Shown here: positions 2,540-63,641 of the stretch, in pieces
How the letters are laid out: every line of letters begins with the position of its first letter
Numbering within the stretch: the stretch's first letter is position 1
Assembly: GCA_050331735.1 (NCBI GenBank)
Contig: JBHJGN010000011.1
Span: 32,001 to 96,000, forward strand
Length of the DNA: 64,000 bases
Source: Cyanophyceae cyanobacterium
Lineage (GTDB): Bacteria; Cyanobacteriota; Cyanobacteriia; Cyanobacteriales; JBHJGN01
Direction of reading: 5' to 3'
Translations under genes and position numbers: made by a program
Notes under the pieces: model-generated
Seen by the model: only the letters and a program-made list of their open reading frames with translations
The model's database searches: none
What the model was told of the DNA's origin: nothing

Positions 2540-2605
2540 GCACCGTGGGCGCGGGGAAGTTGGTCGCTCCGCGACGGGAAAATAGTTGCTGCGTCAGGGG
2601 GGAAA
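2540..2605 (+). repeat. Partial copy A of the hairpin/heptamer repeat (modules only, no core)
   Basis: GCACC-GTG-GGCGC GGGGAA, GTCGC-TCC-GCGAC GGGAAAA and a degenerate GTTGC module. Confidence 0.75.
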
Positions 2606-2836
2606 GCAGGGACCGGGACTTGAACACTGATACTGAAGCCATAGCAGCCTTTCGGACAGCGATGGCTTGTCATTTTGTGAGTTGGCTCAATAAAAATCGG
2701 GACGTATTTGTTGCTTACAAAGCTAGGTTAGGCTTTGTTGGGTCTGAGAATTTATTTAAAAGCAGTTATGGTGTTAAGCAGTGATCAATTAGATGCCAGT
2801 AAAGATGACGGTGGCTATCCTGCTGCCTAGCTTCAA

Positions 2837-4150
2837 GTGAGGAGAGAAATCTTGCAGCAACCGCTCTTAGCTAAACTAGTGCGTGGTGCTGGAGCAGCAT
2901 TGACAATCCAAGTCATCAGTGCCGGAGCTATCTATAGCTTGCAGGTGCTATTAGCCCGCTGGATGGGAACGGCTGAGTACGGAATTTATGACTATGCTAC
3001 CGCTGTTGGTGTTTTTCTCGCTTTTATTGCCGGATTAGGATTGCCCTCTGCGGTATTGCGATTTATCCCGCAATATGCTGCCCATCAAGATTGGGCTCAT
3101 TTGCGGGGAATTATGTGGGGCAGTTGGCAGCAGACTGTGATTGTCAGCATTTTGACCTCGAGCGGTGGAACAGCCATTTTGTTGATGATGAATGCGGCTC
3201 AGAGTTTAGAAGATTATACAGTTCCGCTCATTGTCGGGATCTGGACGCTCCCCACTGTAGCCTTAGCCAACCTCCAAAAGGAAATTGTCCGCGCTTGTGG
3301 GCAGATTGCCATCGCCTATGCCCCATCGCTGATTATTCATCCACTATTGCTGATGAGCATCGCCTTTCTCTGGCAGAGGCGGCAGCAGCTTACGGGGACA
3401 GCAACGCTGACCCTCTCACTACTGGCAGCGCTGCTGGCTTTAGCCATGCAGTTGGTGCTGTTTCAGCAAAACTTAGACACCAGAATCCGCACCGTTCGTC
3501 CCGCTTATGCCATCGTTGAGTGGTGGCAGGTGGCACTGCCGTTAATGTTCCTCGATGGTTCCCATATGGTGCTGAGCCAAACCGATACCCTGATGATTGG
3601 AGCCTTGTTGAACGCTGAACAGGTAGGCATCTACAGCGCTGCTCTCAAAACCTCGCTGTGGGTTCCGTTTATTCTCAGCGCCGTCAATGCGATCGCCGCT
3701 CCGATGTTTGCTTCTCTCTCTGCTCAAGGCGATCGCCGCAGTCTTCAGCAGCTAGTCTCCACCGTTGCCCGCTGGATGTTTTATCCAGCCTTAGCCATTG
3801 CGCTTGCATTGATCGGCTTTGCCGAACCGGTGCTGCAATTATTTGGCCCAGAATTTACGGCAGCTAGAGGAGCATTAATCATTCTCATCCTCGGACAGCT
3901 TGTTAATGTGGGAGCCGGATCGGTTGGGTATTTAATGATGATGACGGGGCATCATACGCAGTCAGCGTTGGTGATGGGAGCTAGTGCTGGTGTAAACGTG
4001 ATTTTAAACCTGATTGGCATTCATCTTTTTGGAATCGTCGGGGCAGCACTGGCAACGGCTTTATCAATGGCGCTATGGAACGTTTGGCTTCACGCTTTGG
4101 TCGTGCAGCGTCTTGGTGTTCGTCCCTCTATTCTAGCTGCCTGGCGCTAA
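2837..4150 (+). CDS. MOP-superfamily polysaccharide flippase (Wzx-like)
   Basis: About 12 hydrophobic segments, LARWMG..EYGIY, DTLMIG....EQVGIYSAA. Confidence 0.85.
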   Translation: MRREILQQPLLAKLVRGAGAALTIQVISAGAIYSLQVLLARWMGTAEYGIYDYATAVGVFLAFIAGLGLPSAVLRFIPQYAAHQDWAHLRGIMWGSWQQTVIVSILTSSGGTAILLMMNAAQSLEDYTVPLIVGIWTLPTVALANLQKEIVRACGQIAIAYAPSLIIHPLLLMSIAFLWQRRQQLTGTATLTLSLLAALLALAMQLVLFQQNLDTRIRTVRPAYAIVEWWQVALPLMFLDGSHMVLSQTDTLMIGALLNAEQVGIYSAALKTSLWVPFILSAVNAIAAPMFASLSAQGDRRSLQQLVSTVARWMFYPALAIALALIGFAEPVLQLFGPEFTAARGALIILILGQLVNVGAGSVGYLMMMTGHHTQSALVMGASAGVNVILNLIGIHLFGIVGAALATALSMALWNVWLHALVVQRLGVRPSILAAWR

Positions 4151-4425
4151 GCTCCGTTGAATATCTGACTCTGTTTGAATCTGTTGCTTGTAATTAAGCA
4201 GTACCAAATAGTGATGTTGATTTTCTGGTTGAATTTTCTTGACCTGTAGGACTATTTGGTCTCTTTCAGGTTAAGTATTACTTAGAGTCTGTTCTCGCCA
4301 TTGGAGTCTAATTGAAGTGCTACTCTCAACCGTTAAAAGAGCTGTTTGGAGGAAAGCGTCTCCCTTCCTACAGTACAATCAAAAAATATCAAAATTTGCT
4401 TGATTGAAAATTTATTCAAATATTA

Positions 4426-5028
4426 TTAAATAGGACTAAATAAAACAGAATTACTCAAAGATTTTGCTTCAACTCCTAATACAGTAGTTAAAGTTTCATT
4501 ATTGCCACTAATGATAGTATTATTATCACTGGTGACAAAGCTTAATTGCTCAAAACTTAGACTATTCCATAATTTGAAGGAATCTTCTAACTCATTAAAA
4601 TCGTGAATTATATCAGCACCTTCACCTACAGCAAGAACAAATTTATCTGCACCTTGTCCGCCGTAGAGATTATCATTTCCCAAACCACCATATAGCAAGT
4701 CATCTCCTCCGTTACCAATGAGATTATCGTTGCCATTTAAACCAAAGAGAATATTACTGTCTAAGTTACCTTGAAGATTGTTATTCTCAGGAGTTCCTTG
4801 AATGTCTGGTTCGACGCTGGGGTTAGCCATGAAAGCACTGTCAACGAACTCATAAATATCTGGAGTCGCAAAAATATGTAAGTGATAGGTAAACTTCTTA
4901 GAACTACCATCAGCTACATCTACCTGGTGACTCTCCTTGATGTAAGTGTCACGCCAGTCTTCATCAGAAAGGCGTACCCCCATTCTCAAAAACCTCGACA
5001 TTGAAGTTATCACTTTATCTAACTTCAC
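4426..5028 (-). CDS. RTX-type Ca-binding repeat protein, probably a C-terminal fragment
   Basis: GLNGNDNL, GNGGDDLL, GGLGNDNL and GGQGADKF nonapeptides. GTG start with an in-frame stop shortly upstream. Confidence 0.65.
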   Translation of the reverse strand: MKLDKVITSMSRFLRMGVRLSDEDWRDTYIKESHQVDVADGSSKKFTYHLHIFATPDIYEFVDSAFMANPSVEPDIQGTPENNNLQGNLDSNILFGLNGNDNLIGNGGDDLLYGGLGNDNLYGGQGADKFVLAVGEGADIIHDFNELEDSFKLWNSLSFEQLSFVTSDNNTIISGNNETLTTVLGVEAKSLSNSVLFSPI

Positions 5029-5101
5029 ACAGCTGAGTTTTTCAACCCTGCCCTACTTAGCTTTTGCTAATCCATTAATACGAAATCTGCTTCTGACAAT
5101 T

Positions 5102-6019
5102 TTACTCTGATTGGGAAACCGTTCTGGCAACTTCTCGAAACTGTCTTAAGATATTCGATGAACTATGGCGATGCCAGAACATCATAGTGCGAATAGTAGA
5201 TGTGAAACCTTCAATATCTTTATAGATGACTCCTTTCCTTTTAAGATTAAGCACGTTAGTGGGAAGTAAGCTAATTCCCATTCCTCCAGCAACCAAGCCC
5301 AACACTGTAATCATGTTGGTTGCTTCCTGAGTAATGTGTGGGACAAATCCAACTCGATTGAGTAAAAGATGAATTTGTTCTGATAAGCCAGAAAAAGACT
5401 GGCGAGTAGGAAGAACAAACCTTTCGTTTGCTAGTACCTGCAAAGGAATTGTTGATTGAGTTCTTAAAGGATGATCTTCAGGCAAGATTAAAACTAATGG
5501 TTCTGTGAGAACCGTTAAATAATTTAAATCTTCCTGTTTAATAGCTTTTTCGTTGGGATGAAAAAAAGCCACATCAAGTTGCTCCTTTAGTAATCCTTCA
5601 ATTTGGTCGTCACACGCCATTTGGCGGCAGTTGAGTTTGACTTCAGGAGAACTGGTGCGGAAAGCATTCAATATATCTGGGAGAATCCCATTAGCGATTG
5701 AACTGGTGAAACCTATATTTAAGTTGCCTACCTCACCTCGATTGAGCTTTTGAGTTAAGTGTATTGCCTGTTCTAATCGAATTAGTATTGAACGGGCTTC
5801 TGCTAAAAATATACTCCCAGCTTGTGTTAGCTCTAAAGGGCGTTTTTTACGATTCAACAATAGACCATCGACCTTCTTCTCCAAAGCCTTGATCTTATTG
5901 CTTAGTTGAGGTTGTGTTGTATGCAGTCTTTCTGCTGCGTGAGTAAAATTACGTTCTTCAGCAACTGCAATAAAGAACTCAAGGTGTTGTAGATCTACTC
6001 CAAGTCGATGCAAATTCAT
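5102..6019 (-). CDS. LysR-family transcriptional regulator
   Basis: HTH LEFFIAVAEERNFTHAAERLHTTQPQLS and C-terminal LVAGGMGISLLP. Start taken at ATG 6019 (the track gives 6058). Confidence 0.92.
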   Translation of the reverse strand: MNLHRLGVDLQHLEFFIAVAEERNFTHAAERLHTTQPQLSNKIKALEKKVDGLLLNRKKRPLELTQAGSIFLAEARSILIRLEQAIHLTQKLNRGEVGNLNIGFTSSIANGILPDILNAFRTSSPEVKLNCRQMACDDQIEGLLKEQLDVAFFHPNEKAIKQEDLNYLTVLTEPLVLILPEDHPLRTQSTIPLQVLANERFVLPTRQSFSGLSEQIHLLLNRVGFVPHITQEATNMITVLGLVAGGMGISLLPTNVLNLKRKGVIYKDIEGFTSTIRTMMFWHRHSSSNILRQFREVARTVSQSE

Positions 6020-6164
6020 AAAACAGGTGATACTATATGAATGCGTGTATAGTAGCATACGTTTTATGTTATTGACGGTATAGTAAAAGTTTCGCTCTAA
6101 TTAGGTAAGTTCATTCGAGTTGTCAAAACGACTCTGATTTAATAGTTAAAGCGAGATTTGTACA

Positions 6165-9307: not shown

Positions 9308-9311
9308 AATG

Positions 9312-13676: not shown

Positions 13677-13765
13677 GTCCCTTTGGGACGGGGAAGCGCG
13701 CTAGAGGCGCGGGGGAAATGTCCCTTTGGGACGGGGAAAGGGGAAGGGGCAAAGGGGAAAGGAAA
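13677..13765 (+). repeat. Partial copy B of the hairpin/heptamer repeat (no core)
   Basis: GTCCC-TTT-GGGAC GGGGAA twice, GCGCT-AGA-GGCGC GGGGGAAA, then GGGGAAA-type heptamers. Confidence 0.85.
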
Positions 13766-13900
13766 GCAAAAAGTATCTGAGTCAGCTCCTACACAGAGAG
13801 TCTGTCAGATTAGCTTACTCTCAATCAGGAGGTACTCTGCTGGAGAAACGCTTAACTTTTGAGGAGTAAGGCTAAGAGCTAATCGCTAACAGCTAAACCC

Positions 13901-16932: not shown

Positions 16933-18447
16933 ATGCACATTGGATTTCTCAACCCCCAAGGCAACTTCGACCCGAACAACAGCCACATCGCCAAACATCC
17001 CGACTTTGGTGGTCAACTCGTCTATGTCAAGCAAGTGGCGATCGCAATGGCTCAAGAAGGTCATCGAGTCGATATTCTTACCCGCCGAATTGTCGATCCC
17101 GAGTGGCCGGAATTTTCCGAGTTTAAAGATGTGTATCCCGGCGTAGAAAATCTCCGCATTCTGCGCTTACCCGCCGGACCCGAAGCCTTTGTCCGGAAAG
17201 AATTGCTGTGGCCGCACCTCGTCAGGGATTGGGTTCCGAGCATTCTGAAATTTTATCGAGAAGAAGGAACGCTGCCAGATGCGTTTACCACTCACTACAG
17301 CGATGGCGGACTGGCCGGGGTGTTGATTGAAGAGCAAACCGGGATTCCATTTACCTTTACCGCTCACTCCCTCGGTGCTCAGAAAATGGACAAGCTCGAG
17401 GTCACGCCGGAAAATATTAAGGAGCTAGACGACTACTATTCTTTTCGCTACCGAATTATTGCAGAACGCTTGAGCATGAATCGCTCAGCCGTCAACATTA
17501 CCAGTACGCAGCAGGAACGCTTTGAACAGTATGGGCATCGTGCCTACCAAGGAGCCGTGGAGCCGAGCAACGACACTCGCTTTTCGATTATTCCTCCGGG
17601 AGTCAATCCGAAAATCTTTGGCGCTGACGTTCGGGCCTCCGATGAAGCAGACATTCACAAGCTTGTCCAAGAAAAACTCGTGCGAGATATCGACGAATCG
17701 AGAAGAGAGTTGCCAGCGATCGTTGCGTCAAGCCGTTTAGCGCCTAAGAAAAACGTTGCTGGTTTAGTTGAAGCTTTTGCTAAGAGCGAATCTCTTCAAG
17801 AGCAAGCCAATTTTGTCCTCATCACCAGTGCTTTAGATAACCCATTCCGCGAACAAGCCGACGATGAAGCCACCGAAAAAGTGCTGGCTCCCATCCGCGA
17901 AATGGTTCAAGACCAGAATTTATGGGGCAAAATTAGCGCCTTTAGCATTCCCAGTCAGGCAGCCTTGGCCGCTACGTATCGGTTTTTAGCAAAGCGTCGT
18001 TCGGTATTTGCCCTAACCTCTCACTTTGAGCCGTTTGGTTTAGCTCCTCTAGAAGCTGTTGTCGCAGGTTTGCCAGTCATCGTGACTCAGAATAGCGGCC
18101 TCGCTGACGATCTCCGCGAGGGCGAAAAGGACTATGCGATTCTAGTCGATCCAGCCGAACCGACCGACATGGCGCGAGGACTCGAAGAATTAGTCAGCAA
18201 TCCGCAGCGCTGGGAAGAATTATTAAACAATGCTCAACAGCACGTGCTTACCTACTATACCTGGGAAGCAACGGCCAAGAACTATTTAGAGATTATCAAG
18301 CAGATTGTAGCCGAACCGAGCTCGCGTCGAGCAGAGAATTTACTTTCCATTCCCGAATACTTTAAAGAGCCATCAGACAAGGATATTTCTCTAGAGCAGT
18401 TGCAACACCTTTACTTTGAAGCGCCGCAGGCGCGGGAAAAGGAATAG
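16933..18447 (+). CDS. sps: Sucrose-phosphate synthase-like GT4 glycosyltransferase (single GT domain)
   Basis: FLNPQGNFD...HPDFGGQLVYVK, HSLGAQK and EPFGLAPLEA. The last 8 codons and the stop lie in repeat copy C. Confidence 0.75.
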   Translation: MHIGFLNPQGNFDPNNSHIAKHPDFGGQLVYVKQVAIAMAQEGHRVDILTRRIVDPEWPEFSEFKDVYPGVENLRILRLPAGPEAFVRKELLWPHLVRDWVPSILKFYREEGTLPDAFTTHYSDGGLAGVLIEEQTGIPFTFTAHSLGAQKMDKLEVTPENIKELDDYYSFRYRIIAERLSMNRSAVNITSTQQERFEQYGHRAYQGAVEPSNDTRFSIIPPGVNPKIFGADVRASDEADIHKLVQEKLVRDIDESRRELPAIVASSRLAPKKNVAGLVEAFAKSESLQEQANFVLITSALDNPFREQADDEATEKVLAPIREMVQDQNLWGKISAFSIPSQAALAATYRFLAKRRSVFALTSHFEPFGLAPLEAVVAGLPVIVTQNSGLADDLREGEKDYAILVDPAEPTDMARGLEELVSNPQRWEELLNNAQQHVLTYYTWEATAKNYLEIIKQIVAEPSSRRAENLLSIPEYFKEPSDKDISLEQLQHLYFEAPQAREKE

Positions 18448-18590
18448 CGCCGGTGGCGCGGGAAAAGTTGCTCCGCAACGGGAAAAGGGGAAGGGGGAAA
18501 GGGGAAAGGGAGGATGTGGCCTATTCCTTAGTTCTGTGTTCTTTCCCGTCGCTAAGCGACGTTTTTCCCCTTCCCCGTCCCGAAGGGACA
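18421..18590 (-). repeat. Full copy C of the composite repeat
   Basis: GCGCC-GCA-GGCGC, GCGCC-GGT-GGCGC, GTTGC-TCC-GCAAC, G heptamers, core ATTCCTTAGTTCTGTGTTC, then GTCGC-TAA-GCGAC and GTCCC-GAA-GGGAC in a C-rich arm. Confidence 0.92.
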
Positions 18591-23971: not shown

Positions 23972-24366
23972 CCGCGATTTTTTTTAGCTGTAGCTAACAT
24001 AGATATCAAGATAGATAACACGCAGTAGCAAATATATCTAAATAAAGGGTCTTGAGTAGGCGGGTAGAATTAAACTGAAAATCAAAGCAGATTAGCTCTT
24101 AGCTTTTCCTGCTTCTCTTTGCTTTCTTAGGTTTTACACTTTATTTCGTCTTCCTACTTATTTTTAAACTTTTGAGTACAAAAATAGAGGCCTGCGTTTA
24201 TTATATCAAAGCAGTTAAGTAATTTCTAGAATCAACCGACAGATTGAACTGTTAAGTTTGCCTGTATCTGGTGTAACAGCTTAAACGACGTGTAAGATTT
24301 AAAGTGAAAGGGAAAACAGTGACCAGTCTAGTTAGTTCATTGAACTGATAACTGATAACTGTTAAG

Positions 24367-24470
24367 TCCCTTTCCCCCTTACCCTTTCCCCTTTTCCCGC
24401 GCCAACGGCGCTTTCCCCTTTTCCCGTTGCGGAGCAACTATTTTCCCGTCTCAAAGTCCCGTCCCGATGA
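24367..24470 (-). repeat. Partial copy D of the hairpin/heptamer repeat (C-rich arm, no core)
   Basis: TTTCCCC heptamers, GCGCC-AAC-GGCGC, GTTGC-GGA-GCAAC and degenerate GTCCC modules; preceded by three AACTGAT-type heptamers (24343-24363). Confidence 0.85.
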
Positions 24471-24491: not shown

Positions 24492-25724
24492 GTGAAACCT
24501 GAGTTGGTACAAGATCTAGACGAGTTTCAAAGCAGACTAGAAAAGCTCTTTAAAGAAACGCTCGTCACTACTAATCCAAATGTGCAGCATCTGCTCGCCA
24601 ATGTTTACAAAGAACTTGGTCAGGCTTCCGAAAAACTACTGGTGGCCTCTGAAGAAATTCTGGCTCAGTCTCAGCAGTTAAAAACGTTACAGAGCCAGTT
24701 GAACCGCGAACGTTACCTCCTAGGCAATGAGGTTAACGAGCAGTCACATAGTATTCTCGTTACCAATGAGCAAGGCGTTATTCAGCAAGCAAGTTCGGCA
24801 GTTGGCTATCTGTTGAACATTGAGCCGCGTTTTTTATTAAATAAACCAGTAGAAACTTTTTTTACGCCTCGCGAGCGTCGCCTCTTTCCCTTCATGATGC
24901 AAAAACTCTGCGAGAGTCAACAGATCCAGCGGTGGACGGTTGAGATCCAGCCTCGCCACTGTCGTCCTATTGTCGTGCTGCTGCGGGCTGTTCCCGTTCG
25001 GGGGCAAGACTCGACAATTCGCTGGAGCTTTACCTGTTTAAGCTCCTCCCAGCGCAGTAAAAATTTTGCCTATCCTCACCGAAACACCCAGTCCTACAGG
25101 CAAGGAGAAATCGTTAGTTTACAGTCGCCAGAGTTGCTTTGGGTTGTTCGTGCAGGCATCGTTAAGCTGAGCACCACCAGCGAAACGGGAGAGGAGGTGC
25201 TGTTGGGCTTAGTTGGTCCTAATATGCCCTTCGGTGCTGCTTTAACGGCTTTGCCCATCTACCAAGCGACAGCGCTTTCAGAAACCGTGGAGCTGATACC
25301 TCTGTCTCAATTAGAGATTGAGCGGCGATCGCTGCTGCCAGACTTTATGCCACAGCTCATTCAGCGGCTACAGCAAACAGAAATCCTGCTAGCAATTTCC
25401 GGTAAGCGACACGTCCAAGAGCGGCTTGATTACCTCTTGCAGTGGCTCAAAGAGCACTTTGGTCAACCCCACCCCCAAGGAATCCGGCTCAGCATCCGCC
25501 TCACTCATCAAGACCTCGCCGATGCCTGCTGCACCACCCGAGTCACCATCAGCCGCCTGATCGGCAAACTCAAGCAACAGGGCAAAATTGCTTACGATTC
25601 TGAGTACAATATTGTCCTTTTAAGCGAGGGGAAAAATGTCCCGGAGGGACGGGGACAGGGGAAAGGGAAAATTGTCGCGTTCGCGACGGGGAAAGAACAC
25701 AGAACTAAGGAATCGGCTGAGTAA
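24492..25724 (+). CDS. Coiled-coil + PAS + Crp-family regulator fusion
   Basis: PAS (ILVTNEQGVIQQAS), GIVKLST...GEEVLLGL and HTH LTHQDLADACCTTRVTISR. The last ~32 aa are read from repeat copy E. Confidence 0.85.
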   Translation: MKPELVQDLDEFQSRLEKLFKETLVTTNPNVQHLLANVYKELGQASEKLLVASEEILAQSQQLKTLQSQLNRERYLLGNEVNEQSHSILVTNEQGVIQQASSAVGYLLNIEPRFLLNKPVETFFTPRERRLFPFMMQKLCESQQIQRWTVEIQPRHCRPIVVLLRAVPVRGQDSTIRWSFTCLSSSQRSKNFAYPHRNTQSYRQGEIVSLQSPELLWVVRAGIVKLSTTSETGEEVLLGLVGPNMPFGAALTALPIYQATALSETVELIPLSQLEIERRSLLPDFMPQLIQRLQQTEILLAISGKRHVQERLDYLLQWLKEHFGQPHPQGIRLSIRLTHQDLADACCTTRVTISRLIGKLKQQGKIAYDSEYNIVLLSEGKNVPEGRGQGKGKIVAFATGKEHRTKESAE

Positions 25725-25805
25725 CCCCCCTTTACCCCTTCCCCCTTCCCCGTTGCGCAGCAACTATTTCCCCATTGCGCAGCAACCGCCCGCGCCTAGA
25801 AGCGC
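25628..25805 (+). repeat. Full copy E of the composite repeat
   Basis: GTCCC-GGA-GGGAC, GTCGC-GTTC-GCGAC, core GAACACAGAACTAAGGAATCGGCTGAGTA, C heptamers, GTTGC-GCA-GCAAC, ATTGC-GCA-GCAAC and GCGCC-TAGA-AGCGC. Confidence 0.92.
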
Positions 25806-27642: not shown

Positions 27643-27841
27643 GTCGAACGGGACGGGTAAAGGGGAAGGGGGAAATTGTCGCGTTCTCGACGGGAAAAGG
27701 GAAAAGGGGAAATTGTCGCGTTCGCGACGGGAAAGAACACAGGACTAAGGAATCGGCTGAGTACCCCCCCCTTTCCCCCTTCCCCTTTCCCCGTTGCGCA
27801 GCAACTATTTCCCCGTTGCGCAGCAACTGCGCCGACAGCGC
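27643..27841 (+). repeat. Full copy F of the composite repeat (fills the cheB-cheR spacer)
   Basis: GTCGC-GTTC-TCGAC, GTCGC-GTTC-GCGAC, core GAACACAGGACTAAGGAATCGGCTGAGTA, GTTGC-GCA-GCAAC twice and GCGCC-GAC-AGCGC. Confidence 0.92.
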
Positions 27842-28562: not shown

Positions 28563-28720
28563 TCGCTGCGCAATGGGGCAAGCGCCGTTGGCGCAGTTGC
28601 TGCGCAACGGGTAAAGGGGAAGGGGGAAAGGGGGAAGTACTTAGCCGATTCCTTAGTCCTGTGTTCTTTTCCCCGTCCCGGAGGGACAAATTTCCCTTTC
28701 CCCGTCGCGTTCGCGACAAT
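28563..28720 (-). repeat. Full copy G of the composite repeat
   Basis: GCGCC-GTT-GGCGC, GTTGC-TGC-GCAAC, G heptamers, core TACTTAGCCGATTCCTTAGTCCTGTGTTC, GTCCC-GGA-GGGAC and GTCGC-GTTC-GCGAC. Confidence 0.92.
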
Positions 28721-39585: not shown

Positions 39586-39586
39586 C

Positions 39587-42928: not shown

Positions 42929-43897
42929 ATGCCAAAAGTTTCCGTGATTATTCCCGCCTACAACACCATGAAGTATCTGCCTGAAACGGTTGAGAGCGTC
43001 CTTCAGCAGACCTTTACCAACTTCGAGGCGATTGTGGTCAACGATGCCAGTAGCGATGGCGTAGAACAGTGGGTGAATCAGCTCAGCGACCCGCGAGTGA
43101 AGCTAATTACTCACGCCGTCAATCAGGGGTTAGCTAAAACGAGAAATACCGGCATCAAGGCGGCGCAGGGAGAACTGCTCGCTTTCCTCGACGGGGACGA
43201 TCTCTGGCAGCCCACGAAATTAGCCCAGCAGGTCCAGCTCCTTGACACTCATCCAGAAGTGGGTCTGATCTATACCTGGGTTGCCTACATCGACGAACAG
43301 GGCAAGGCAACGGGGAGAGTATTTAAACATGAGGCAGAAGGGGATGTCTGGTCGGTGTTAGTTCAGCACAACATTGTCGAGTGCGGCAGTGTCCCCTTGG
43401 TGCGCCGGGAATGCTTAGAAACCGTCGGATGCTTCGATCCCCAACTGAGTCAGTTTAATAACGGCGAAGACTGGGATCTGTGGCTGCGCATCGCCGAGCG
43501 CTATCCCTTTAAGGTGGTCAAGGAACCCCTCGTCTACTATCGGCAACGACCGGCGAGTGGTTCGAGAAACTGGGAAGCAATGGAGAAAAGTTTTCACATT
43601 GTCTTTGAAAAGGCGTTCGCGTCGGCGGCAGCAGTACCGCACTTGAGGAACAAGACCTACGGATTAGCGCACCTGTGTCTAGCTTGGAAACCTCTCCAAA
43701 GCGTCAGCCGAGATTACCAAAAAGCGCGGGAGTACCGCCGTTTGGCGTTGCAATACTGTCCTCGGCTGCGCTTTTCTAAGGAGTACCTGCGCCTCAGTAC
43801 CGCCATATTTACCCTGCGCTGGTTTGGTCCCGACGGCTACCGCCGCTTCTTGACAGTAGCCTATGCGGTGCGTCGGCGCTTGGCAAACTCTCACTAA
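42929..43897 (+). CDS. GT2 glycosyltransferase
   Basis: VSVIIPAYN, NDASSD, FLDGDD and EDWDLWLR. Confidence 0.92.
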   Translation: MPKVSVIIPAYNTMKYLPETVESVLQQTFTNFEAIVVNDASSDGVEQWVNQLSDPRVKLITHAVNQGLAKTRNTGIKAAQGELLAFLDGDDLWQPTKLAQQVQLLDTHPEVGLIYTWVAYIDEQGKATGRVFKHEAEGDVWSVLVQHNIVECGSVPLVRRECLETVGCFDPQLSQFNNGEDWDLWLRIAERYPFKVVKEPLVYYRQRPASGSRNWEAMEKSFHIVFEKAFASAAAVPHLRNKTYGLAHLCLAWKPLQSVSRDYQKAREYRRLALQYCPRLRFSKEYLRLSTAIFTLRWFGPDGYRRFLTVAYAVRRRLANSH

Positions 43898-57683: not shown

Positions 57684-57782
57684 CGTTTAGGAAACCTTTA
57701 ATCAACGGAGCGAGCAATTTTGAACTCTTGTCCATTAAGATTGTTCAGAACAACGCATTCACCGTTCGGAATTTATCAGGAC

Positions 57783-60263
57783 ATGATCTCGCCGATTTCC
57801 CGCCCACAAATCCCCTCCTGTGCCTGGAAACGCTCTCTTGGCTTAGGGTGGGACAACCCCTATACGGTACGCCGAGCAGATAACCTCGATGACGGTCCTT
57901 GGCACGGCATGCCCCTCGGAGGCTTTGGAGCAGGATGTATCGGGCGATCGCCGCGAGGAGATTTCAACCTCTGGCATCTCGACGGTGGCGAACATATCTT
58001 TCGCTCGCTTCCGGCCTGTCAGTTTAGCGTATTTGAGCAGCCAGAGGGGGGACCGGCTCAAGCCTACGCCCTGTGTACTGAGCCGCCCACCGATGGAACC
58101 TTGTCCCGCTGGGCCTGGTATCCTCCTGGGCAGGGAACCTACGCCGCTCTCTACCCCCGGAGCTGGTTTGAGTACACAGGAGTGTTTCAAACCGAGCTAA
58201 CCTGCACTCAATTTTCTCCCGTCTGGGCAAATTGCTACCAGGAAACTAGCTATCCTGTCGCGGTATTTGAATGGACCGCCCACAATCCCACCGAGCGACC
58301 GATTACTCTCAGCATCATGCTGACGTGGCAAAATACGGTCGGGTGGTTTACCAACGCGATTAAATCTCCCCAGATACGGGTGCGCGACGATGGCAGTCCC
58401 GAATACGACTATCAGCCCCGCTGGGGAGACAGCACCGGAAATTTCAATCAGTGGATTGTTGACAATTACCGCGTTGGCTGCCTGCTCAATCGAGTCCAGC
58501 TTCACGAGCAGATTCAGGAGGGAGAAGGACAAATCGCCCTTGCCAGCGTCACAAATCCGAGCGTAGAAACGTTCTACTTAAGCCGCTGGAATCCTCAAGG
58601 AGAAGGCGGCGAGGTCTGGGACTCCTTTGCCGCCAACGGCTCGCTACCGGATCGAGAAGATGAAACCCCTGCCGCCCCGGTCGAACAAATTGCGGCGGCG
58701 ATCGCCCTGCGGTTAACGATTCGCCCCGGTAAAACCCGTAAAATTCCGTTTATCCTCGCCTGGGATTTTCCGATTACCGAATTTGCCCCCGGAGTGCAAT
58801 ACTATCGTCGCTACACCGATTTCTTCGGTCGTTCGGGTCAGAATGCCTGGTCAGTGGTCAAGACGGCTCTCAAGCACAGCGACCTCTGGCAAGAACGGAT
58901 TGAAGCTTGGCAAACCCCCATTTTGCAGCAGAAGCTCCCAGACTGGTTGAAAATGGCGCTGTTTAATGAGCTGTATCTCCTCACCGACGGCGGCACTCTC
59001 TGGACCGCCGCTACTGAAGCCGATCCGGTGGGTCAGTTTGGTGTGCTAGAGTGCCTCGACTACCGCTGGTACGAAAGCCTCGATGTGCGGCTTTATGGTT
59101 CATTTGCCCTAGCCATGCTGTGGCCGAAGCTAGATAAAGCCGTCTTAGAAGCCTTTGCCAGAGCCATTCCGACTGGCGACGCGACTCCCCGCACCATCGG
59201 CTACAATGGAGCCACCGCCATTCGTAAAGCGGCTGGGGCCACTCCCCACGACCTCGGGGCCCCCAACGAGCATCCCTGGGAGAAAACCAACTACACCAGC
59301 TACCAAGACTGCAATCAGTGGAAAGACTTGGCCTGCGATTTTGTGCTTCAGGTTTATCGAGACTTCGTGTTTACCGGAGCGCAGGACACCGAGTTCCTTT
59401 GGGAATGCTGGTCGGCGATTACCCAAAGCCTCGACTACCTCCAACAGTTTGACCGCGATGGCGATGGCATTCCCGAAAATTCAGGAGCACCCGATCAAAC
59501 CTTTGATGACTGGCGCTTACAGGGAGTGAGTGCCTACTGCGGGGGCTTGTGGATTGCGGCCCTCGAAGCCGCTGTGGCGATCGCCTCTGTGTTGCTCGAC
59601 CACCCACCCCAAAACCCGCAACACCAGCCGGACAACTATCCTCATGCTGTACAGGCAGCCGTCACCACCTATCAAGGCTGGCTAGCAGAAGCCAGAAAGA
59701 TCTATCAAACATTGTGGAATGGCCAATACTACCGTCTCGATAGCCGCAGTGGTTCGGAGGTTGTCATGGCCGATCAGCTCTGCGGTCAGTTCTATACGCA
59801 AACGTTAGGACTCCCTAACGTAGTAGAACGCAAGTATGCAGAAGCGGCGCTGCGGGAAATTTACAATGCCTGCTTTCTCAAGTTCAACGACGGCAACCTA
59901 GGAGCAGCTAATGGCCTGATGAGCGATGGGTCTCCAGAAAACCCTAACGCCACTCATCCTTTGGAAGTGTGGACAGGCATTAACTTTGGTTTAGCGGCAT
60001 TCATGATTCAGATGGGAATGAAAGACGAGGCGTTTACCCTTGCCCAAGCCGTTGTTCAGCAAATTTACGACCGTGGTTTACAGTTCCGCACTCCCGAAGC
60101 CATTACCGCCGTCGGCACGTTCCGTGCCTCCCACTACCTACGGGCGATGGCAATTTGGAGCATTTATCAAGCTTTAACTTCTCTGTCGCTCCGCGACGGG
60201 AAAAGGGGAAGCGCCTGCGGCGCGGGGGAAAGGGAAAAGGGGAAGGGGGAAAGGGAGGGTTAG
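57783..60263 (+). CDS. GH116 beta-glucosidase / glucosylceramidase-like
   Basis: GMPLGGFGAG, LECLDYRWYESLDV, PHDLG, PDQTFDDW, EVWTG, FRTPEA and YLRAMAIW. The last ~26 aa are read from repeat copy H. Confidence 0.92.
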   Translation: MISPISRPQIPSCAWKRSLGLGWDNPYTVRRADNLDDGPWHGMPLGGFGAGCIGRSPRGDFNLWHLDGGEHIFRSLPACQFSVFEQPEGGPAQAYALCTEPPTDGTLSRWAWYPPGQGTYAALYPRSWFEYTGVFQTELTCTQFSPVWANCYQETSYPVAVFEWTAHNPTERPITLSIMLTWQNTVGWFTNAIKSPQIRVRDDGSPEYDYQPRWGDSTGNFNQWIVDNYRVGCLLNRVQLHEQIQEGEGQIALASVTNPSVETFYLSRWNPQGEGGEVWDSFAANGSLPDREDETPAAPVEQIAAAIALRLTIRPGKTRKIPFILAWDFPITEFAPGVQYYRRYTDFFGRSGQNAWSVVKTALKHSDLWQERIEAWQTPILQQKLPDWLKMALFNELYLLTDGGTLWTAATEADPVGQFGVLECLDYRWYESLDVRLYGSFALAMLWPKLDKAVLEAFARAIPTGDATPRTIGYNGATAIRKAAGATPHDLGAPNEHPWEKTNYTSYQDCNQWKDLACDFVLQVYRDFVFTGAQDTEFLWECWSAITQSLDYLQQFDRDGDGIPENSGAPDQTFDDWRLQGVSAYCGGLWIAALEAAVAIASVLLDHPPQNPQHQPDNYPHAVQAAVTTYQGWLAEARKIYQTLWNGQYYRLDSRSGSEVVMADQLCGQFYTQTLGLPNVVERKYAEAALREIYNACFLKFNDGNLGAANGLMSDGSPENPNATHPLEVWTGINFGLAAFMIQMGMKDEAFTLAQAVVQQIYDRGLQFRTPEAITAVGTFRASHYLRAMAIWSIYQALTSLSLRDGKRGSACGAGEREKGKGEREG

Positions 60264-60360
60264 AAAGTTTGTTCCTTAGTCCTGTGTTCTTTCCCCGTCC
60301 CGCCAGGGACAGATTTCCCTTTCCCCCTTCCCCGTCCCGCCAGGGACAGTTTCCCCGTTC
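60185..60360 (-). repeat. Full copy H of the composite repeat
   Basis: GTCGC-TCC-GCGAC, GCGCC-TGC-GGCGC, G heptamers, core GTTAGAAAGTTTGTTCCTTAGTCCTGTGTTC and GTCCC-GCCA-GGGAC twice. Confidence 0.92.
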
Positions 60361-60815
60361 CAAACTTAACTTTTCATCAAGACTGTACTCTATAATGCAT
60401 TTACTTTTGAATAGCCTTGATAATCTAAAGCGGTTAGAAAAATCCTGCTGTCTCTACAATGGAACTACTGACTTTGTCAAATTGTGCCAACAAGCTCTGA
60501 AGAGTAACCTTCTCAAGTAACTTTACAAAAGTTCATTAACTACTATATATTGGGTAAGATTCAAAGCCAATCAAGCAGCAATCAACCTAACAAAAGAAAG
60601 AGGCTGAGCAAAATAGAGCGGTTTTTGAAAAGCGTGAGGGGCATCATGTAGTCGTCGTAAAGTTACTGGTCATTGGCCATCAACAAATAACTAGTCTGTC
60701 AGCCTGTCCCTTCAGCTAACAAACAACAGCGACAAATTTAAGCTCGACCATCCACTCCCTTACTTTTGCAGTTTCCTCTCACCACACCAACCCCGTTACG
60801 ATTGGACTCCACGTC

Positions 60816-61769
60816 ATGAAAACTGAAAGAAATACTGACACGGTTCGGCTCTATTTGAAGGAGATCGGTCGCGTTCCTCTGCTGACTCATGAGGAGGAAA
60901 TTCTCTACGCTAAGCAGGTACAGCGGCTCATTGCCCTGGAAAACCTTAGAGATTCCCTTCAGGAAAATCTGGGAACAGAACCGACTCACAGCCAGTGGGC
61001 AGAGGCAGCTCAGATGACTGAAGCTCAATTGCTCTCTAGTATTCAGGCTGGTCAGGTATCAAAGCGGAAGATGATTGAGGCCAACCTGCGGTTAGTAGTA
61101 TCGGTTGCTAAAAAATATCTCAAGCGCAATCTCGATCTGCTGGACTTAATTCAAGAAGGGACGATTGGAATGCAGCGAGGCGTTGAGAAGTTTGACCCGA
61201 CCAAAGGCTATCGGTTTTCTACCTATGCCTACTGGTGGATACGCCAGGCGATTACGAGAGCGATCGCTGAAAAAAGCCGTACCATTCGTCTGCCCATTCA
61301 CATCACCGAAAAACTCAACAAAATCAAAAAAGCCCAGCGGCAGATCTCCCAAGAAAAAGGGCGAGCCGCTACCGTGGCAGAACTGGCTCAGGAGCTAGAT
61401 TTATCTCCTAAACAGGTTCGGGAATACCTTGAAAGAGCCCGTCAGCCTCTTTCCCTAGATTTAAGAGTCGGAGAAAACAGCGATACAGAACTAGGAGAAC
61501 TGCTCGAAGACACCGAGCAATCACCAGAAGACTACGTAGCCCACTCTTCCCTACAGCTCGATCTCCAAGAACTCATGGTCGATCTCACCCCCCAACAGCG
61601 GGAAGTTCTGACCCTACGCTACGGATTAACCGACGGCAAGCCGCTGACCCTAGCCAAAATTGGAGCCAGGCTCAATATCAGTCGCGAGCGAGTGCGGCAG
61701 ATAGAAAGAGAAGCCATTTTAAAGCTTCGCAAACGCAAAGCAGATATGAGGGAATATTTGGCGAGTTAA
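60816..61769 (+). CDS. sigD: Group 2 RNA polymerase sigma factor (SigD-like)
   Basis: [39 protein letters not shown] and SRERVRQIE; no region 1.1. The sigma call is secure; the SigD subtype is less so. Confidence 0.75.
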
Positions 61770-61921
61770 GTCCCGCTAGAGACGGGGAAACGGTCGCGTT
61801 CGCGACGGGGAAAGAACCCAGGATTAAGGAACAAACTTTCTAACCCCCCCTTTCCCCCTTCCCCCTTCCCCCTTTCCCCGTTGCGAAGCAACTTTTTCCC
61901 CTTTCCCCGCGCCGCAGGCGC
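61770..61921 (+). repeat. Full copy I of the composite repeat
   Basis: Starts directly after the sigma TAA: GTCCC-GCTA-GAGAC, GTCGC-GTTC-GCGAC, core GAACCCAGGATTAAGGAACAAACTTTCTAAC, GTTGC-GAA-GCAAC and GCGCC-GCA-GGCGC. Confidence 0.92.
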
Positions 61922-62037
61922 TCCAGGGCGGAGAACGCGGTAATCGGGGTTCGGTTCACCTAACACTTGAAGTTGGTTAGAGTTGTTATTCTAACTATCA
62001 AGAACGAATTCATAACCTCAATTAGGAGACGCTTTTC

Positions 62038-62376
62038 GTGAATAACGCATCCAATCGTTCTCAAGGTTTTCTTGGCGGTGACAGTGAGTCCCATCTCAAC
62101 CTGTGGCAATACGTTCAGTCTCTCAATCCAGAAACCATTGCTCAGCTTTCTAAGCCGGAGTCGAATGAAGTATTTCAGGTGATGGAGCGCAACATTATTG
62201 GGTTACTCGGTAACCTGCCCTCAGAACACTTTGACGTGAATATTAATACTAGCCGCGAACACCTGGGTAGACTGCTGGCTTCAGCGATGATGAGCGGATA
62301 TTTTTTGAGAAATGCAGAGCAGCGGATGAACTTTGAAAAGGCCCTACAGGGAATTCCCTCTTCGCCAGAGGAGTAG
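62038..62376 (+). CDS. DUF760 family protein
   Basis: LWQYVQSL.PETIAQLSKP and LGRLLASAMMSGYFLRNAEQR. Confidence 0.85.
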   Translation: MNNASNRSQGFLGGDSESHLNLWQYVQSLNPETIAQLSKPESNEVFQVMERNIIGLLGNLPSEHFDVNINTSREHLGRLLASAMMSGYFLRNAEQRMNFEKALQGIPSSPEE

Positions 62377-63472
62377 GGCGCTGTCTGCTGAACTCGAATT
62401 ACCCGGCTCGGTTGTCACTCTGAGGCGATCGCTCCTCGACTGGTATCGCCAGCAGGGTCGTTCTTTGCCGTGGCGACAGCAGCAAGACCCCTATGCCATC
62501 TGGGTGTCTGAAGTGATGCTTCAGCAAACGGGAGTCAAAACGGTGATTCCCTACTACCAGCGGTGGCTGGAGCAATTTCCCACCGTTACTTTTCTTGCCA
62601 ACGCTCAGCTACAGACCGTTCTCAAAGCGTGGGAAGGGCTGGGCTACTACGCCCGCGCTCGCAACCTGCATCGCGCCGCACAGCAGATTGTTGACCAACA
62701 CAACGGCCTGTTTCCCTCCCAGCTAGAGGAGGCGATCGCCTTACCCGGCATCGGTCGCACGACAGCAGGAGGCATTCTCAGCGCCGCCTTTGCTCAACCC
62801 GTCTCGATTCTAGACGGTAACGTTAAGCGAGTGCTGTCTCGATTAGTGGCTCTGTCTATACCGCCTGCAAAAGCCAATCAGCAGCTCTGGCGGCTGTCGG
62901 ATACTCTCCTCGATCCCCACAATCCTAGAGACTTTAATCAGGCGATCATGGACCTAGGAGCCACCGTTTGTACTCCCAGTCGTCCTCACTGTCTGCTTTG
63001 CCCTTGGCAAAACGAGTGTCAGGCGTACAATAGAGGCATTCAAAATCAACTACCTATGCGTGAAGCGACTTCTCCTCTGCCCCACAAGCGAATTGGTGTG
63101 GCCGTCATTCTCAACGACCAAGACCAAATTCTAATTGACCGCCGCCCCGCCAAAGGCCTGCTAGGAGGACTGTGGGAATTTCCGGGTGGCAAAATCGAGC
63201 CCGGAGAGACGATTCCAGAATGTATTAAAAGAGAGATCTTAGAAGAGTTGGCCATCGACATTGAGGTAGGCGAACACCTCATTACTATCGACCACGTCTA
63301 TACGCACTTCCGGGTCACTCTAGCGGTGCACTACTGTCGTCACCTCGCCGGCGTCCCTCAACCCATCGAATGTGACGAAATCCGCTGGGTCACGCTAGCA
63401 GAGATCGACCAGTTTCCCTTCCCAAAAGCCAACAGCAAAATTATTGCCGCCCTCAAAAATCGCTCCGCCTAG
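62333..63472 (+). CDS. mutY: A/G-specific adenine glycosylase with C-terminal Nudix domain (start uncertain)
   Basis: WVSEVMLQQT, WEGLGYYARARN, LPGIGRTTAG, LDGNVKRV, CTPSRPHCLLCP..NEC (4Fe-4S) and WEFPGGK. Confidence 0.95.
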   Translation: MKRPYREFPLRQRSRALSAELELPGSVVTLRRSLLDWYRQQGRSLPWRQQQDPYAIWVSEVMLQQTGVKTVIPYYQRWLEQFPTVTFLANAQLQTVLKAWEGLGYYARARNLHRAAQQIVDQHNGLFPSQLEEAIALPGIGRTTAGGILSAAFAQPVSILDGNVKRVLSRLVALSIPPAKANQQLWRLSDTLLDPHNPRDFNQAIMDLGATVCTPSRPHCLLCPWQNECQAYNRGIQNQLPMREATSPLPHKRIGVAVILNDQDQILIDRRPAKGLLGGLWEFPGGKIEPGETIPECIKREILEELAIDIEVGEHLITIDHVYTHFRVTLAVHYCRHLAGVPQPIECDEIRWVTLAEIDQFPFPKANSKIIAALKNRSA

Positions 63473-63641
63473 TCCCTGCGGGACGGGGAAGCTGTCCCTG
63501 GCGGGACGGGGAAGGGGGAAAGGGAAAACTGTCGCGTTCGCAACGGGGAAAGAACCCAGGACTGAGGAACAAACCTTCTAACCCTCCCTTTCCCCCTTCC
63601 CCGCGCCATCGGCGCTTCCCCTTTCCCCGCAGCTTCGCTGC
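63472..63641 (+). repeat. Full copy J of the composite repeat
   Basis: Shares the G of the mutY TAG: GTCCC-TGC-GGGAC, GTCCC-TGGC-GGGAC, GTCGC-GTTC-GCAAC, core GAACCCAGGACTGAGGAACAAACCTTCTAAC, GCGCC-ATC-GGCGC and GCAGC-TTC-GCTGC. Confidence 0.92.

Follow-up and report, generated by a model that had tools for sequence, protein, structure and literature searches.

Hairpin cassettes with compensatory stems as probable modules of a lineage-specific mosaic repeat in a cyanobacterial genome

Short hairpin cassettes dispersed through a cyanobacterial genome are probably the modules of a non-coding mosaic repeat specific to that lineage, in which hairpin-forming ability is kept, modules are reshuffled among copies and the elements may serve as punctuation at gene 3' ends. 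As a lineage-specific variant, they belong with the class that comprises the REP/BIME sequences, small dispersed repeats and heptamer repeats. Counted over the whole genome, the cassettes number 553, belong to 12 stem types and lie in 286 clusters. Each cassette is a 13–14-nt hairpin (5-bp stem, 3–4-nt loop) joined to GGGGAAA-type G-rich heptamers, and one to four such modules make up a G-rich arm. The full element is asymmetric: the G-rich arm is followed by a 43-nt core (consensus GGGGAAAGAACACAGGACTAAGGAATAAGCTGATTCATTCCCC; 144 copies in the genome) and then by a C-rich arm, with its modules inverted and drawn from a different set. Cassette orientations within clusters throughout the genome always read +..+-..-, never -+, and the spacing between neighbors runs 22, 29, 36 nt and onward in 7-nt increments. 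Stem and loop are both identical in 33 of 161 same-arm neighbor pairs as against 2.8% of random pairs. In structure predictions a full element can form one extended stem from which the mini-hairpins branch off; for the element at 60185–60352 the predicted fold is a single long stem of G-arm with C-arm (-97.5 kcal/mol, z -4.9), and two further whole elements give predicted values of -93.8 kcal/mol (z -5.5; 63472–63641) and -53.4 kcal/mol (z -2.4).

The window, i.e., the whole 64,000-nt stretch analyzed, was scanned on both strands for a 5-bp stem with a 3–4-nt loop and a GGG(G/A)(A/G) tail, which returned 43 matches, of which 30 are perfect and 13 carry one mismatch. Eight of these (the perfect match at 43443 and the one-mismatch matches at 5819, 16895, 26047, 39809, 45331, 50472 and 59841) were treated as chance and left out because all lie outside any G/C-tract cluster. 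The remaining 29 perfect and 6 one-mismatch cassettes are grouped in 10 repeat clusters spread over positions 2540–63641 (Table 1), in line with the 35–40 or so estimated in an earlier sequence-only reading. The two commonest stems far exceed expectation: GTCCC hairpins occur 9 times against 0.09 expected and GTCGC hairpins 7 times against 0.10, numbers that none of 100 shuffles reached in either case. The perfect cassettes comprise GTCCC (9), GTCGC (7), GTTGC (6), GCGCC (6) and GCAGC (1), exactly the five types that had been proposed for the window; genome-wide, that list is too short, there being at least nine recurrent types, with GTTCC (67), ATCGC (14), GCCGC (14) and GTGCC (10) beyond the five. 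The hybrid stem GTCGC/GCAAC, the T·G variant GCGCT/GGCGC and the GCAGC/GCTGC stem are all present as claimed. When the 29 perfect cassettes are aligned, the outer G-C and the loop-closing C-G pairs are constant (29/29 each), again as described, while pair 2 is U-A in 22 and C-G in 7, pair 3 is C-G in 16, G-C in 6, U-A in 6 and A-U in 1, and pair 4 is C-G in 15 and G-C in 14; this alignment was selected for perfect stems, so that its 100% pairing arises by construction and what it can tell lies in the pattern of types alone.

Table 1. Repeat elements and their parts in the window (strand "." for full elements)
Feature	Coordinates	Strand	Composition
Solo G-rich arm, no core match	2540–2605	+	GTCGC-TCC-GCGAC 2563–2575; one-mismatch GCACC-GTG-GGCGC 2540–2552
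Solo G-rich arm, no core match	13677–13775	+	GTCCC-TTT-GGGAC 13677–13689, 13720–13732; T·G variant GCGCT-AGA-GGCGC 13698–13710; then GGGGAAA-type heptamers
Full element, core on minus strand	18421–18589	.	G-arm GCGCC 18421–18433, GCGCC 18447–18459, GTTGC 18467–18479; C-arm GTCGC 18548–18560, GTCCC 18577–18589
Partial core copy	18519–18547	-	model positions 2–30; nhmmer E 4.8e-06
Solo arm, C-rich on + strand, no core match	24361–24447	-	GCGCC 24399–24411; GTTGC 24426–24438
Full element	25638–25786	.	GTCCC-GGA (flipped loop) 25638–25650; GTCGC-GTTC 25674–25687; core; GTTGC 25752–25764; one-mismatch GTTGC/GCAAT 25774–25786
Core copy	25688–25730	+	model positions 1–43; E 9.6e-11
Full element	27678–27841	.	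one-mismatch GTCGC/TCGAC 27678–27691; GTCGC-GTTC 27715–27728; core; GTTGC 27793–27805, 27815–27827
Core copy	27729–27770	+	E 5.1e-10
Core + adjoining arm	28631–28717	-	core 28631–28673 (E 9.5e-11); GTCCC-TCC 28675–28687; GTCGC-GAAC 28704–28717; loops read on minus strand
Full element, core on minus strand	60185–60352	.	GTCGC 60185–60197; GCGCC 60211–60223; core; GTCCC-TGGC 60297–60310, 60334–60347
Core copy	60254–60296	-	E 5.1e-08
Full element	61770–61921	.	one-mismatch GTCCC/GAGAC 61770–61783; GTCGC-GTTC 61793–61806; core; GTTGC 61880–61892; GCGCC 61909–61921
Core copy	61807–61849	+	E 2.4e-07
Full element	63472–63641	.	GTCCC 63472–63484, 63494–63507; hybrid GTCGC/GCAAC 63531–63544; core; GCGCC 63603–63615; GCAGC-GAA 63629–63641
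Core copy	63545–63586	+	E 1.4e-04

Across the genome, the tail-anchored perfect hairpins fall into few stem types connected by single base-pair swaps, and such compensatory variants would preserve pairing, i.e., hairpin-forming ability would be the conserved property. Of 111 cassettes located by means of the neighboring core and not by their own pairing, 67 have a perfect 5-bp stem and 18 more keep four of the five pairs. The adjoining core retains a per-site identity to its consensus of 0.787, from which intact 10-nt stems would be expected in 0.787^10, or about 9%; stem mismatches have therefore not accumulated at the neutral rate, such accumulation being what the sequence-only reading had named as fatal to its proposal. 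Its view that structure rather than sequence is kept is thus supported, both by the compensatory links among types and by stems far better conserved than the core, though perfect stems could also stem from mechanical palindrome correction or rapid turnover and not from selection.

The loops are less free than had been supposed. Very stable DNA mini-hairpins follow a rule, as set out in the part of PMC13037366 drawn on here, of a GNA or GNNA loop (GAAB being weaker) with GC-GC or CC-GG closure. A center of this type, with a GNA, GNNA or GAAB loop on GC or CC closing pairs, is found in 423 of the 546 perfect cassettes in the genome (77%), the loop ends being fixed and the middle base variable, and 123 fall outside it. 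At the loop ends and in the two pairs next to the loop, the cassettes appear to obey the rule for unusually stable mini-hairpins. The conforming loop lies mostly on the C-rich strand, and in the GCGCC and GCAGC types a GNA loop is often on the G-rich strand; read on the strand with the G-rich tail, the loops of the 29 perfect cassettes in the window are T..C (16), G..A (3), GTTC/GAAC (4) and other (6).

The stem types had also been described as interchangeable, which holds within an arm class and fails between arms. Of the cassettes with GTCCC or GTTCC stems, 115 lie in the arm that adjoins the core at its GAACACAG end and 2 in the opposite one, whereas of those with GTTGC or GCGCC stems 77 lie in the arm away from that end against 6 on its side. 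Within an arm, the stem that a cassette has does not depend on how closely the cores are related: nearest core neighbors share the stem in 34 of 90 cases at the core-adjacent position (28.0 expected) and in 19 of 79 in the other arm (20.4 expected), and different cassettes are found on near-identical cores, which makes swapping inside an arm class real. Module reshuffling among elements might then be much faster than core divergence, with arms growing through local duplication in 7-nt steps. The likeliest route would be slippage, template switching or gene conversion across shared heptamer tracts, with no dedicated transposase. As for the cassette of roughly 20 nt being the mobile unit, what moves looks more like a hairpin plus G-heptamers than like a hairpin alone, 160 of 192 GTCCC hairpins having a G tract and solo insertions within genes consisting of one cassette and about five heptamers. 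In-frame solo arms of this kind lie inside two conserved genes, a CobN-family gene and an NRPS/PKS gene, and the CobN inserts are absent from 8 orthologues.

Placement relative to genes, based on crude longest-ORF calls, is skewed: 152 clusters lie between tandem, 60 between convergent and 20 between divergent genes, against a background of 2410, 725 and 737 such regions, and the core-bearing elements are in 53 convergent, 75 tandem (41 sense, 34 antisense) and 5 divergent settings. At 68 of the 272 gene 3' ends that flank a cluster, the first hairpin begins between -1 and +3 nt relative to the stop codon. In the window, the element at 63472–63641 has as its first base the G of the TAG that ends ORF 62333–63472, and the first cassette of that at 18421–18589 falls within the end of ORF 16933–18447. 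At the 3' ends of genes the elements may persist, or function, as structured punctuation that is neutral to direction, with putative roles in transcript 3'-end structure, termination, insulation or DNA topology.

REP sequences have been reported to protect 3' ends, terminate transcription or modulate translation termination, and the present elements might likewise act as RNA, being co-transcribed with the upstream gene, with RNA pairing as the selected property. The abutment on stop codons, the depletion between divergent genes, the strong predicted RNA folds and, from an excerpt of PMC3733652, the frequent provision of the TAG stop of flanking ORFs by GTAG-type REP termini are consistent with this. 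However, sense-strand loops are mixed (TnC 93, GnA 81), a simple terminator scan shows no enrichment (9 sites against 8.9 in shuffles), and the loop and closing-pair rule fits DNA mini-hairpins, the RNA versions being much less stable (Tm 39 vs 76.5 C in section 2.3 of PMC13037366); we consider this reading unlikely. The mismatch comparison proposed for finding the folding strand also shows no bias, with G·T against A·C at 53 vs 59 on the tail strand and 20 vs 19 on the gene-sense strand, so that G·U is not in excess and neither RNA nor a DNA single strand is singled out; decay of one-mismatch copies fits this symmetry equally well. The same symmetry suits a purely mechanical origin, in which quasi-palindrome template switching at replication and tandem duplication in slippery heptamers make the palindromes and keep them perfect, the elements being neutral or selfish filler that is tolerated nowhere but at the 3' ends of genes. 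The 51 of 194 one-mismatch cassettes that are hybrids of two major half-stems, the common identical neighbors, the 7-nt increments, the lineage-specific distribution and the lack of any target duplication or dedicated enzyme among our findings point the same way, but correction alone leaves unexplained the fixed first and last loop bases around a variable middle, the restriction to CC or GC inner pairs and the separate stem set of each arm, which renders it quite improbable.

A reading in which a single-strand HUH (Y1) transposase acts on the cassettes, as RAYT does on REP or TnpA on IS200/IS605 ends, draws on 8 Y1_Tnp matches in the genome and on small hairpins being recognition targets of such enzymes (in the portion of PMC6006769 used). 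By the class signatures given there, all 8 match class 1 (IS200/IS605 type), with a DH[LIVT]H motif, and none has the NHxH of class 2 RAYTs; no RAYT gene was found in the genome, only 2 of the 8 have a cassette within 3 kb, about chance at an estimated one cluster per 19.5 kb, and the stems are without a 5' GT[AG]G tag, leaving this very unlikely. Binding of the double-stranded palindromes by a dimeric protein would suit the 5-3-5 layout typical of dimer sites, but the at least nine half-sites have nothing in common beyond G at position 1 and C at position 5, and a dimer that reads sequence does not require strictly compensatory variation; we regard it as highly improbable.

Among known systems that come close are SDR4-6 of Nostocaceae, 21–27-nt small dispersed repeats that Elhai et al. 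reportedly described in Genome Research in 2008, and that are said to share a hairpin with compensatory changes, often within tandem heptamer repeats, and to be inserted in otherwise conserved sequence. All three traits recur here (the comparison being of descriptions, not sequences), but here the modules are tied to one or other arm of an element that has a core, and the loops obey the mini-hairpin rule. The lineage also differs from the Nostocaceae, since this genome is the sole member of its own family among those compared. A later paper (PMC5861425) states that SDR-like repeats were not found outside Nostocaceae; a search of about 300 sampled cyanobacterial genomes for the present family gave almost no matches, only four marginal ones, and in three relatives (G010, G057 and G066) the heptamer tracts are plain and hold no cassettes.

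Enterobacterial REP/BIME and REPIN-RAYT systems are similar in that their palindromes are short, extragenic and placed at the 3' ends of genes, often at stop codons, and make up mosaics in which palindrome types alternate in orientation about fixed linkers, with many copies per genome. They differ in that the cassettes here are half as long, lack a GTAG or CGTC tag and a RAYT gene, have different stem types per arm (the same stem flanks both sides of the core in 5 of 106 pairs) and are flanked by G-rich heptamer arrays. The heptamer repeats of Xanthomonas and Nostoc, in the sections drawn on from Rehm et al. 2015 (PMC4692102), are G-tract tandems, G-quadruplex-capable, close to stop codons and seldom placed between divergent genes, and those of Xanthomonas are often paired in convergent orientation. 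They and the cyanobacterial STRR heptamers share the tandem G-tract heptamers (224 of 477 G4 motifs here lie at clusters), but are without the embedded mini-hairpins and core.

The Acido-Lenti-1 RNA motif (Rfam RF01687), with repeats in Planctomycetota, Acidobacteriota and others, has an identical 20-mer, GTCCCTCCGGGACGGGGAAA, and more GTCCC-N3-4-GGGAC hairpins, but is a longer element with a second hairpin CCCAGCG...CGCTGGG; no window match reached the gathering score of that family. The mini-hairpin DNAs GCGNAGC and GCGNNAGC (Kimoto and Hirao 2026, PMC13037366) share their sequence rule with the cassettes, and the promoters of the phage N4 virion RNA polymerase, described in the same part of that source as a 5-bp stem with a 3-nt GGA or GAA loop, have a stem-loop geometry identical to that predicted here. 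Those, as presented there, are single sites with a function at origins of replication or of transcription, whereas the cassettes are hundreds of dispersed modules.

The window was scanned on both strands for 5-bp stems with 3–4-nt loops and a G-rich tail. This yielded 43 matches, of which 35 (29 perfect and six with one mismatch) lie within ten G/C-tract clusters between positions 2540 and 63641, the remaining eight being counted as chance; the two commonest patterns recur nine and seven times in the window, against about 0.1 expected. The five stem types listed by the sequence-only reading, named here by their 5' half-stems, cover every one of the 29 perfect cassettes (GTCCC 9, GTCGC 7, GTTGC 6, GCGCC 6 and GCAGC 1), and the two named variants were also recovered, the hybrid at 63531 and the T·G form at 13698. 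When these 29 are aligned, the outer G-C and loop-closing C-G pairs are invariant, and the middle three pairs vary solely on both sides together; as the aligned cassettes had been pre-selected for perfect stems, only this pattern of pair types is informative.

For the pairing test, cassettes were located via the adjoining core and not via their own pairing, the sample being the 111 cores whose 5' end is complete. Perfect 5-bp stems stand beside 67/111 of these cores and stems with four of five pairs beside 18 more, with some of the remainder merely out of register. The cores are 0.787 identical to their consensus per site, a rate at which only about 9% of the 10-nt stems would be expected to be intact; thus, the stems are much better kept than the core that adjoins them. 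The proposal that structure is maintained is borne out, and stem mismatches do not accumulate at the neutral rate. On the tail strand, i.e., the G-rich strand bearing the heptamers, the 194 one-mismatch cassettes comprise 53 with G·T/T·G, 59 with A·C/C·A and 82 others, and 51 of the 194 are hybrids of two major half-stems. On the gene-sense strand of tandem intergenic regions, G·T and A·C mismatches stand at 20 vs 19. The comparison of these two mismatch types, suggested earlier as a guide to the folding strand, is thus without bias on either count and names no such strand, nor do the mismatch counts speak for selection at the transcript level.

Across the 5.57-Mb assembly of 99 contigs to which the window belongs, anchoring on the tail only recovered 604 perfect hairpins; 12 stems are recurrent (see the table), and the remainder are nearly all singletons, with one stem occurring twice. 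From the list itself, the stem types may be read as a network in which neighbours are one base pair apart, i.e., separated by two compensating changes. The tail was never found in the genome beside control stems of similar composition. The 553 cassettes of the 12 recurrent stems fall into 286 clusters. A recurrent 14-nt variant outside the 5-bp scheme, GTCCGGTGCGGGAC (complement GTCCCGCACCGGAC), which looks like a 4-bp stem with a bulged pair, is seen in many clusters, e.g., on three contigs at C71:26111, C19:37190 and C8:68991.

Recurrent stems of the genome (G000), their counts per arm in elements oriented by the core, and the inserts of the CobN-family gene (C, contig; L181, the locus of that gene)
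Feature	Copies genome-wide	In arm at GAACACAG end of core	In other arm	Coordinates	Remark
Stem GTCCC	160	82	2		
Stem GTCGC	102	46	15		
Stem GCGCC	75	4	37		
Stem GTTGC	70	2	40		
Stem GTTCC	67	33	0		
Stem GCAGC	26	3	8		
Stem ATCGC	14				
Stem GCCGC	14	3	6		
Stem GTGCC	10	0	5		
Stem GCCGT	7				Part of a different, longer palindrome
Stem GTCCT	4				
Stem GTCTC	4				
CobN-family gene inserts				L181:2383-2395, L181:3388-3400 = G000:C16:3382-3394, 4387-4399	Read SLRDGEGEKGKGERGEE and FPPLSPFPLALSPS

In the 286 clusters, plus cassettes always precede minus cassettes and never the reverse; hence, each strand reads a G-rich arm first and a C-rich arm second. Neighbouring cassettes with 3-nt loops are spaced 22, 29 or 36 nt apart, with one nucleotide more for 4-nt loops, and these 7-nt steps indicate that the hairpins are embedded in tandem heptamers of the GGGGAAA type. 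A 43-nt core lies between the arms of 144 elements, with seven copies in the window; the copies were collected by iterated nhmmer, blastn-short with a 30-nt core having given 90 mostly short matches. Whole elements are predicted to fold into a single long stem between the G-rich and C-rich arms, with the mini-hairpins branching off it (−93.8, −97.5 and −53.4 kcal/mol; z −5.5, −4.9 and −2.4). At least two other core types are found between similar arms, one of about 100 nt with gacgggcattttgcccgc and the other made of CAGTGAA-like heptamers (G000:C14:25582-25815, C19:105377-105619, C22:125749-125940; C4:45094-45257, C23:57370-57546, C37:73164-73373). Cassette units that are identical or nearly so are arrayed head to tail in threes at G000:C20:84922-85022 and C66:83191-83277, repeating every 36 and 29 nt.

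Once the elements are oriented by their core, the stems form arm-specific sets (see the table). Of 106 pairs of cassettes opposed across the core, only five have a common stem, vs 17% of random pairs, and none has both stem and loop in common; the interchangeability of stems proposed from the sequence is thus wrong across arms. Inside an arm it holds, the stem being unlinked to the relatedness of the cores: the core-adjacent stem is identical in the nearest-core neighbour in 34/90 cases vs 28.0 expected (276 of 2000 permutations were as high), and the corresponding figure for the other arm is 19/79 vs 20.4. Cores that are 0–2% divergent are flanked by differing stems and loops. A 10-nt stem is unlikely to gain two point changes while the adjacent 43-nt core stays unchanged, and we infer that whole modules are exchanged between elements. 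Arms also appear to undergo local duplication, with same-arm neighbours carrying an identical stem and loop in 33/161 pairs vs 2.8% of random pairs. Window positions 25638-25650 and 28675-28687 have the same GTCCC stem, with GGA as the loop on the G-rich strand in the first and on the C-rich strand in the second; recombination or template switching between the two stem halves would be expected to flip the loop in this way.

The loops, which had been taken to be free, have fixed end bases and vary in the middle. Among 421 tail-strand triloops, 284 are T-N-C and 45 G-N-A, with a variable middle base (C 174, G 78, T 44, A 33), and the 125 tetraloops include 71 T-NN-C and 32 G-NN-C, the latter mostly GTTC. 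Read on the C-rich strand, the loops become GNA, GNNA and GAAC, and every common stem has CC or GC as its final two bases. According to excerpts of a 2026 review (PMC13037366), when all 64 triloops are placed in GCNNNGC only GNA gives a very stable hairpin, and closure by GC-GC or CC-GG is tolerated, unlike closure by CG-CG or GG-CC; the same excerpts give a melting temperature of 67 °C for the mini-hairpin GCGAACGC, describe the RNA form of a mini-hairpin as far less stable (39 vs 76.5 °C), and present the promoters of the phage N4 virion polymerase as 5-bp stems with 3-nt GGA or GAA loops. The mini-hairpin sequence rule (GNA/GNNA, with a weaker GAAB, and GC-GC or CC-GG closure) fits 423/546 perfect cassettes (C-rich strand, 373; G-rich strand, 50) and leaves 123/546 outside it. 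On the strand opposite the C-rich hairpins, a G-quadruplex motif is present in 181/286 clusters, and 224 of the 477 such motifs genome-wide are no more than 120 nt from a cluster, a zone making up 1.6% of the sequence.

Judging by these matches, the cassettes may act as folded DNA. Under a joint reading that is rather unlikely to be right in its entirety, an arm would be a two-strand non-B DNA device at gene ends, working as DNA and not RNA, with its modules held in a pool. Upon opening of the duplex, the C-rich strand would snap into a series of GNA/GNNA mini-hairpins of exceptional stability, the G-rich heptamers across from them would form G-quadruplexes, and the arms would hold an open or cruciform state, e.g., absorbing supercoils or stopping read-through from both sides. 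The shared pool of modules would be exchanged via heptamer homology, with modules even landing in frame inside genes. If this were true, the cassettes would be a case of the mini-hairpin DNA motif being used in nature and throughout a genome.

Two conserved genes bear in-frame solo arms, i.e., arms without a core. One, of the CobN/Mg-chelatase family (1288 aa, PF02514), has two of them, each with one cassette and about five heptamers. These are absent from eight orthologues, which come from other families and have gaps or their own lineage-specific repeats at those loops. The other, an NRPS/PKS gene (3838 aa), bears three in-frame 36-nt cassette units with C-rich heptamers (L180:7192-7276 in the numbering of its locus = G000:C68:7891-7975) within a condensation domain, just before HHIVADGWS, and their translation is proline-rich (SPFPVPPGQFPL repeated). 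Units of cassette plus tract evidently reach new places without a core.

The affinities of these repeats can be weighed against several known classes. REPs of the REPIN-RAYT type are 20–40-nt imperfect palindromes with a 5' GT[AG]G (or CGTC) tag, whereas the cassettes are 13–14 nt long, and the tag, sought 5' of their stems, is absent, the preceding base being A or T. A REPIN is an inverted doublet of the same REP, unlike the seldom matching cassettes across a core. A gene for a RAYT (REP-associated class 2 Y1 HUH protein) was not found in the genome: by the class signatures in an excerpt of PMC6006769 (class 1, DHxH), all eight PF01797 (Y1) matches carry the class 1 DH[LIVT]H motif, and two of these eight genes have a cassette within 3 kb. 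REP membership of the cassettes accordingly fails on length, tag, RAYT and the doublet rule, while a likeness to REP/BIME exists in the extragenic placement at 3' ends and the rarity between divergent genes (here from crude ORF calls), and the mosaic, arm-specific palindromes work alike. A MITE needs TIRs, target-site duplication and an autonomous IS; a non-exhaustive search found no partner IS, and no target-site duplication was found in 106 elements, of which 14 have matching flanks over 2 nt and two over 3 nt.

The closest concept is that of the small dispersed repeats of Nostocaceae, reportedly described by Elhai in 2008: their unit is reported to be about 21–27 nt, with a hairpin backed by compensatory changes, and to lie within tandem heptamers and be inserted into otherwise conserved sequence. 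The cassettes are alike in their 22-nt minimum spacing, three covarying pairs of five, at least nine stem types, 7-nt steps and CobN inserts missing from eight orthologues. Such repeats were not found beyond Nostocaceae, as stated in an excerpt of a later paper (PMC5861425). The arms, and the arms only, resemble G-rich heptamer SSRs in having tandem G-tract heptamers, at least four tracts, proximity to stops and convergent pairs, and as far as excerpts of Rehm 2015 describe that class they belong to it, being convergently paired near stop codons. The new findings are that each arm has its own stem set, that modules apparently swap between cores of near-identical sequence, that the loops mostly follow the mini-hairpin rule, that the wobble test is null and that some inserts lie in frame. 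Small bacterial repeats have mostly been described as fixed sequences, whereas at least nine hairpin variants here obey one structural rule, which agrees with the rule defined by experiment for a class of hyper-stable DNA hairpins. The resulting hypothesis on the folding strand, and on DNA or RNA, is oligonucleotide-testable and concerns a repeat class, the gene-end heptamer arrays, that occurs in many phyla, and the rapid module swapping together with the in-frame inserts makes this genome useful for studying the transposase-free spread of tiny repeats.

The genome is the sole member of its family among those searched. The GTCCC cassette with its tail, present here in 128 copies, was found in 0/40 relatives of the same order. 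A 14-mer of the heptamer junction has 91 copies here, nine in one other genome and at most three in the other 399; the matches outside this genome are plain heptamer tracts without hairpins. An any-stem covariance model gave 73 matches in this genome; with 49 candidates scored per genome under strict filters, it gave three marginal matches in two of 150 genomes of the order and one marginal match in 150 genomes of the phylum. No other genome among those searched yielded the family itself. A metagenome scan with the pattern GGGRAAAGAACACAG returned at least 115 loci, and among the matches listed none fits the core model and one has a single hairpin; they were rejected as relatives, being chance matches to too unspecific a pattern. 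Also rejected were 25 loci with an exact 20-mer, which are either repeats of the Acido-Lenti-1 type in other phyla or isolated matches in coding sequence. This 20-mer, GTCCCTCCGGGACGGGGAAA, occurs with nearby GTCCC-N3-4-GGGAC hairpins in MAGs of Planctomycetota, Sumerlaeota and Acidobacteriota, within repeats present in multiple copies (loci L005-L029). These repeats match the Rfam Acido-Lenti-1 motif (RF01687); matches reaching the Rfam gathering score come solely from the other-phylum loci, and none lies in the window. A stable hairpin may have been reached convergently, or a module may be shared.

Placement was counted on crude longest-ORF calls (4290 ORFs, 82% of the genome). By these calls, 152 clusters are in tandem, 60 in convergent and 20 in divergent intergenic regions, against a background of 2410, 725 and 737, and 53 further clusters overlap an ORF, mainly at its end. 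The core-bearing elements are distributed as 53 convergent, 75 tandem (41 sense, 34 antisense), 10 genic, one at a contig edge and five divergent, the last being 5/133 of those that are intergenic. At 272 gene 3' ends by clusters, the first hairpin starts at −1, 0, +1, +2 and +3 nt from the stop in 17, 16, 20, 8 and 7 cases. A stop-like target sequence was rejected as the basis of this abutment: a stop-like triplet is present at 37/133 start-facing vs 95/194 stop-facing arm ends, and this rarity at start-facing ends argues that real stop codons are concerned. For GTAG-type REPs, proximity to stops and even the supply of TAG were already known, according to an excerpt of PMC3733652. Terminator-like sites (a G+C-rich stem plus a T run) in the window between 57000 and 64000 number nine vs 8.9 in shuffles, three of the nine being cassettes. 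The window ORF 16933-18447 enters a G-rich arm, such that the cassette at 18421-18433 forms its last codons and its TAG stop lies in the linker before the second cassette, and the ORF 57720-60263 overlaps the element at 60185 by about 80 nt.
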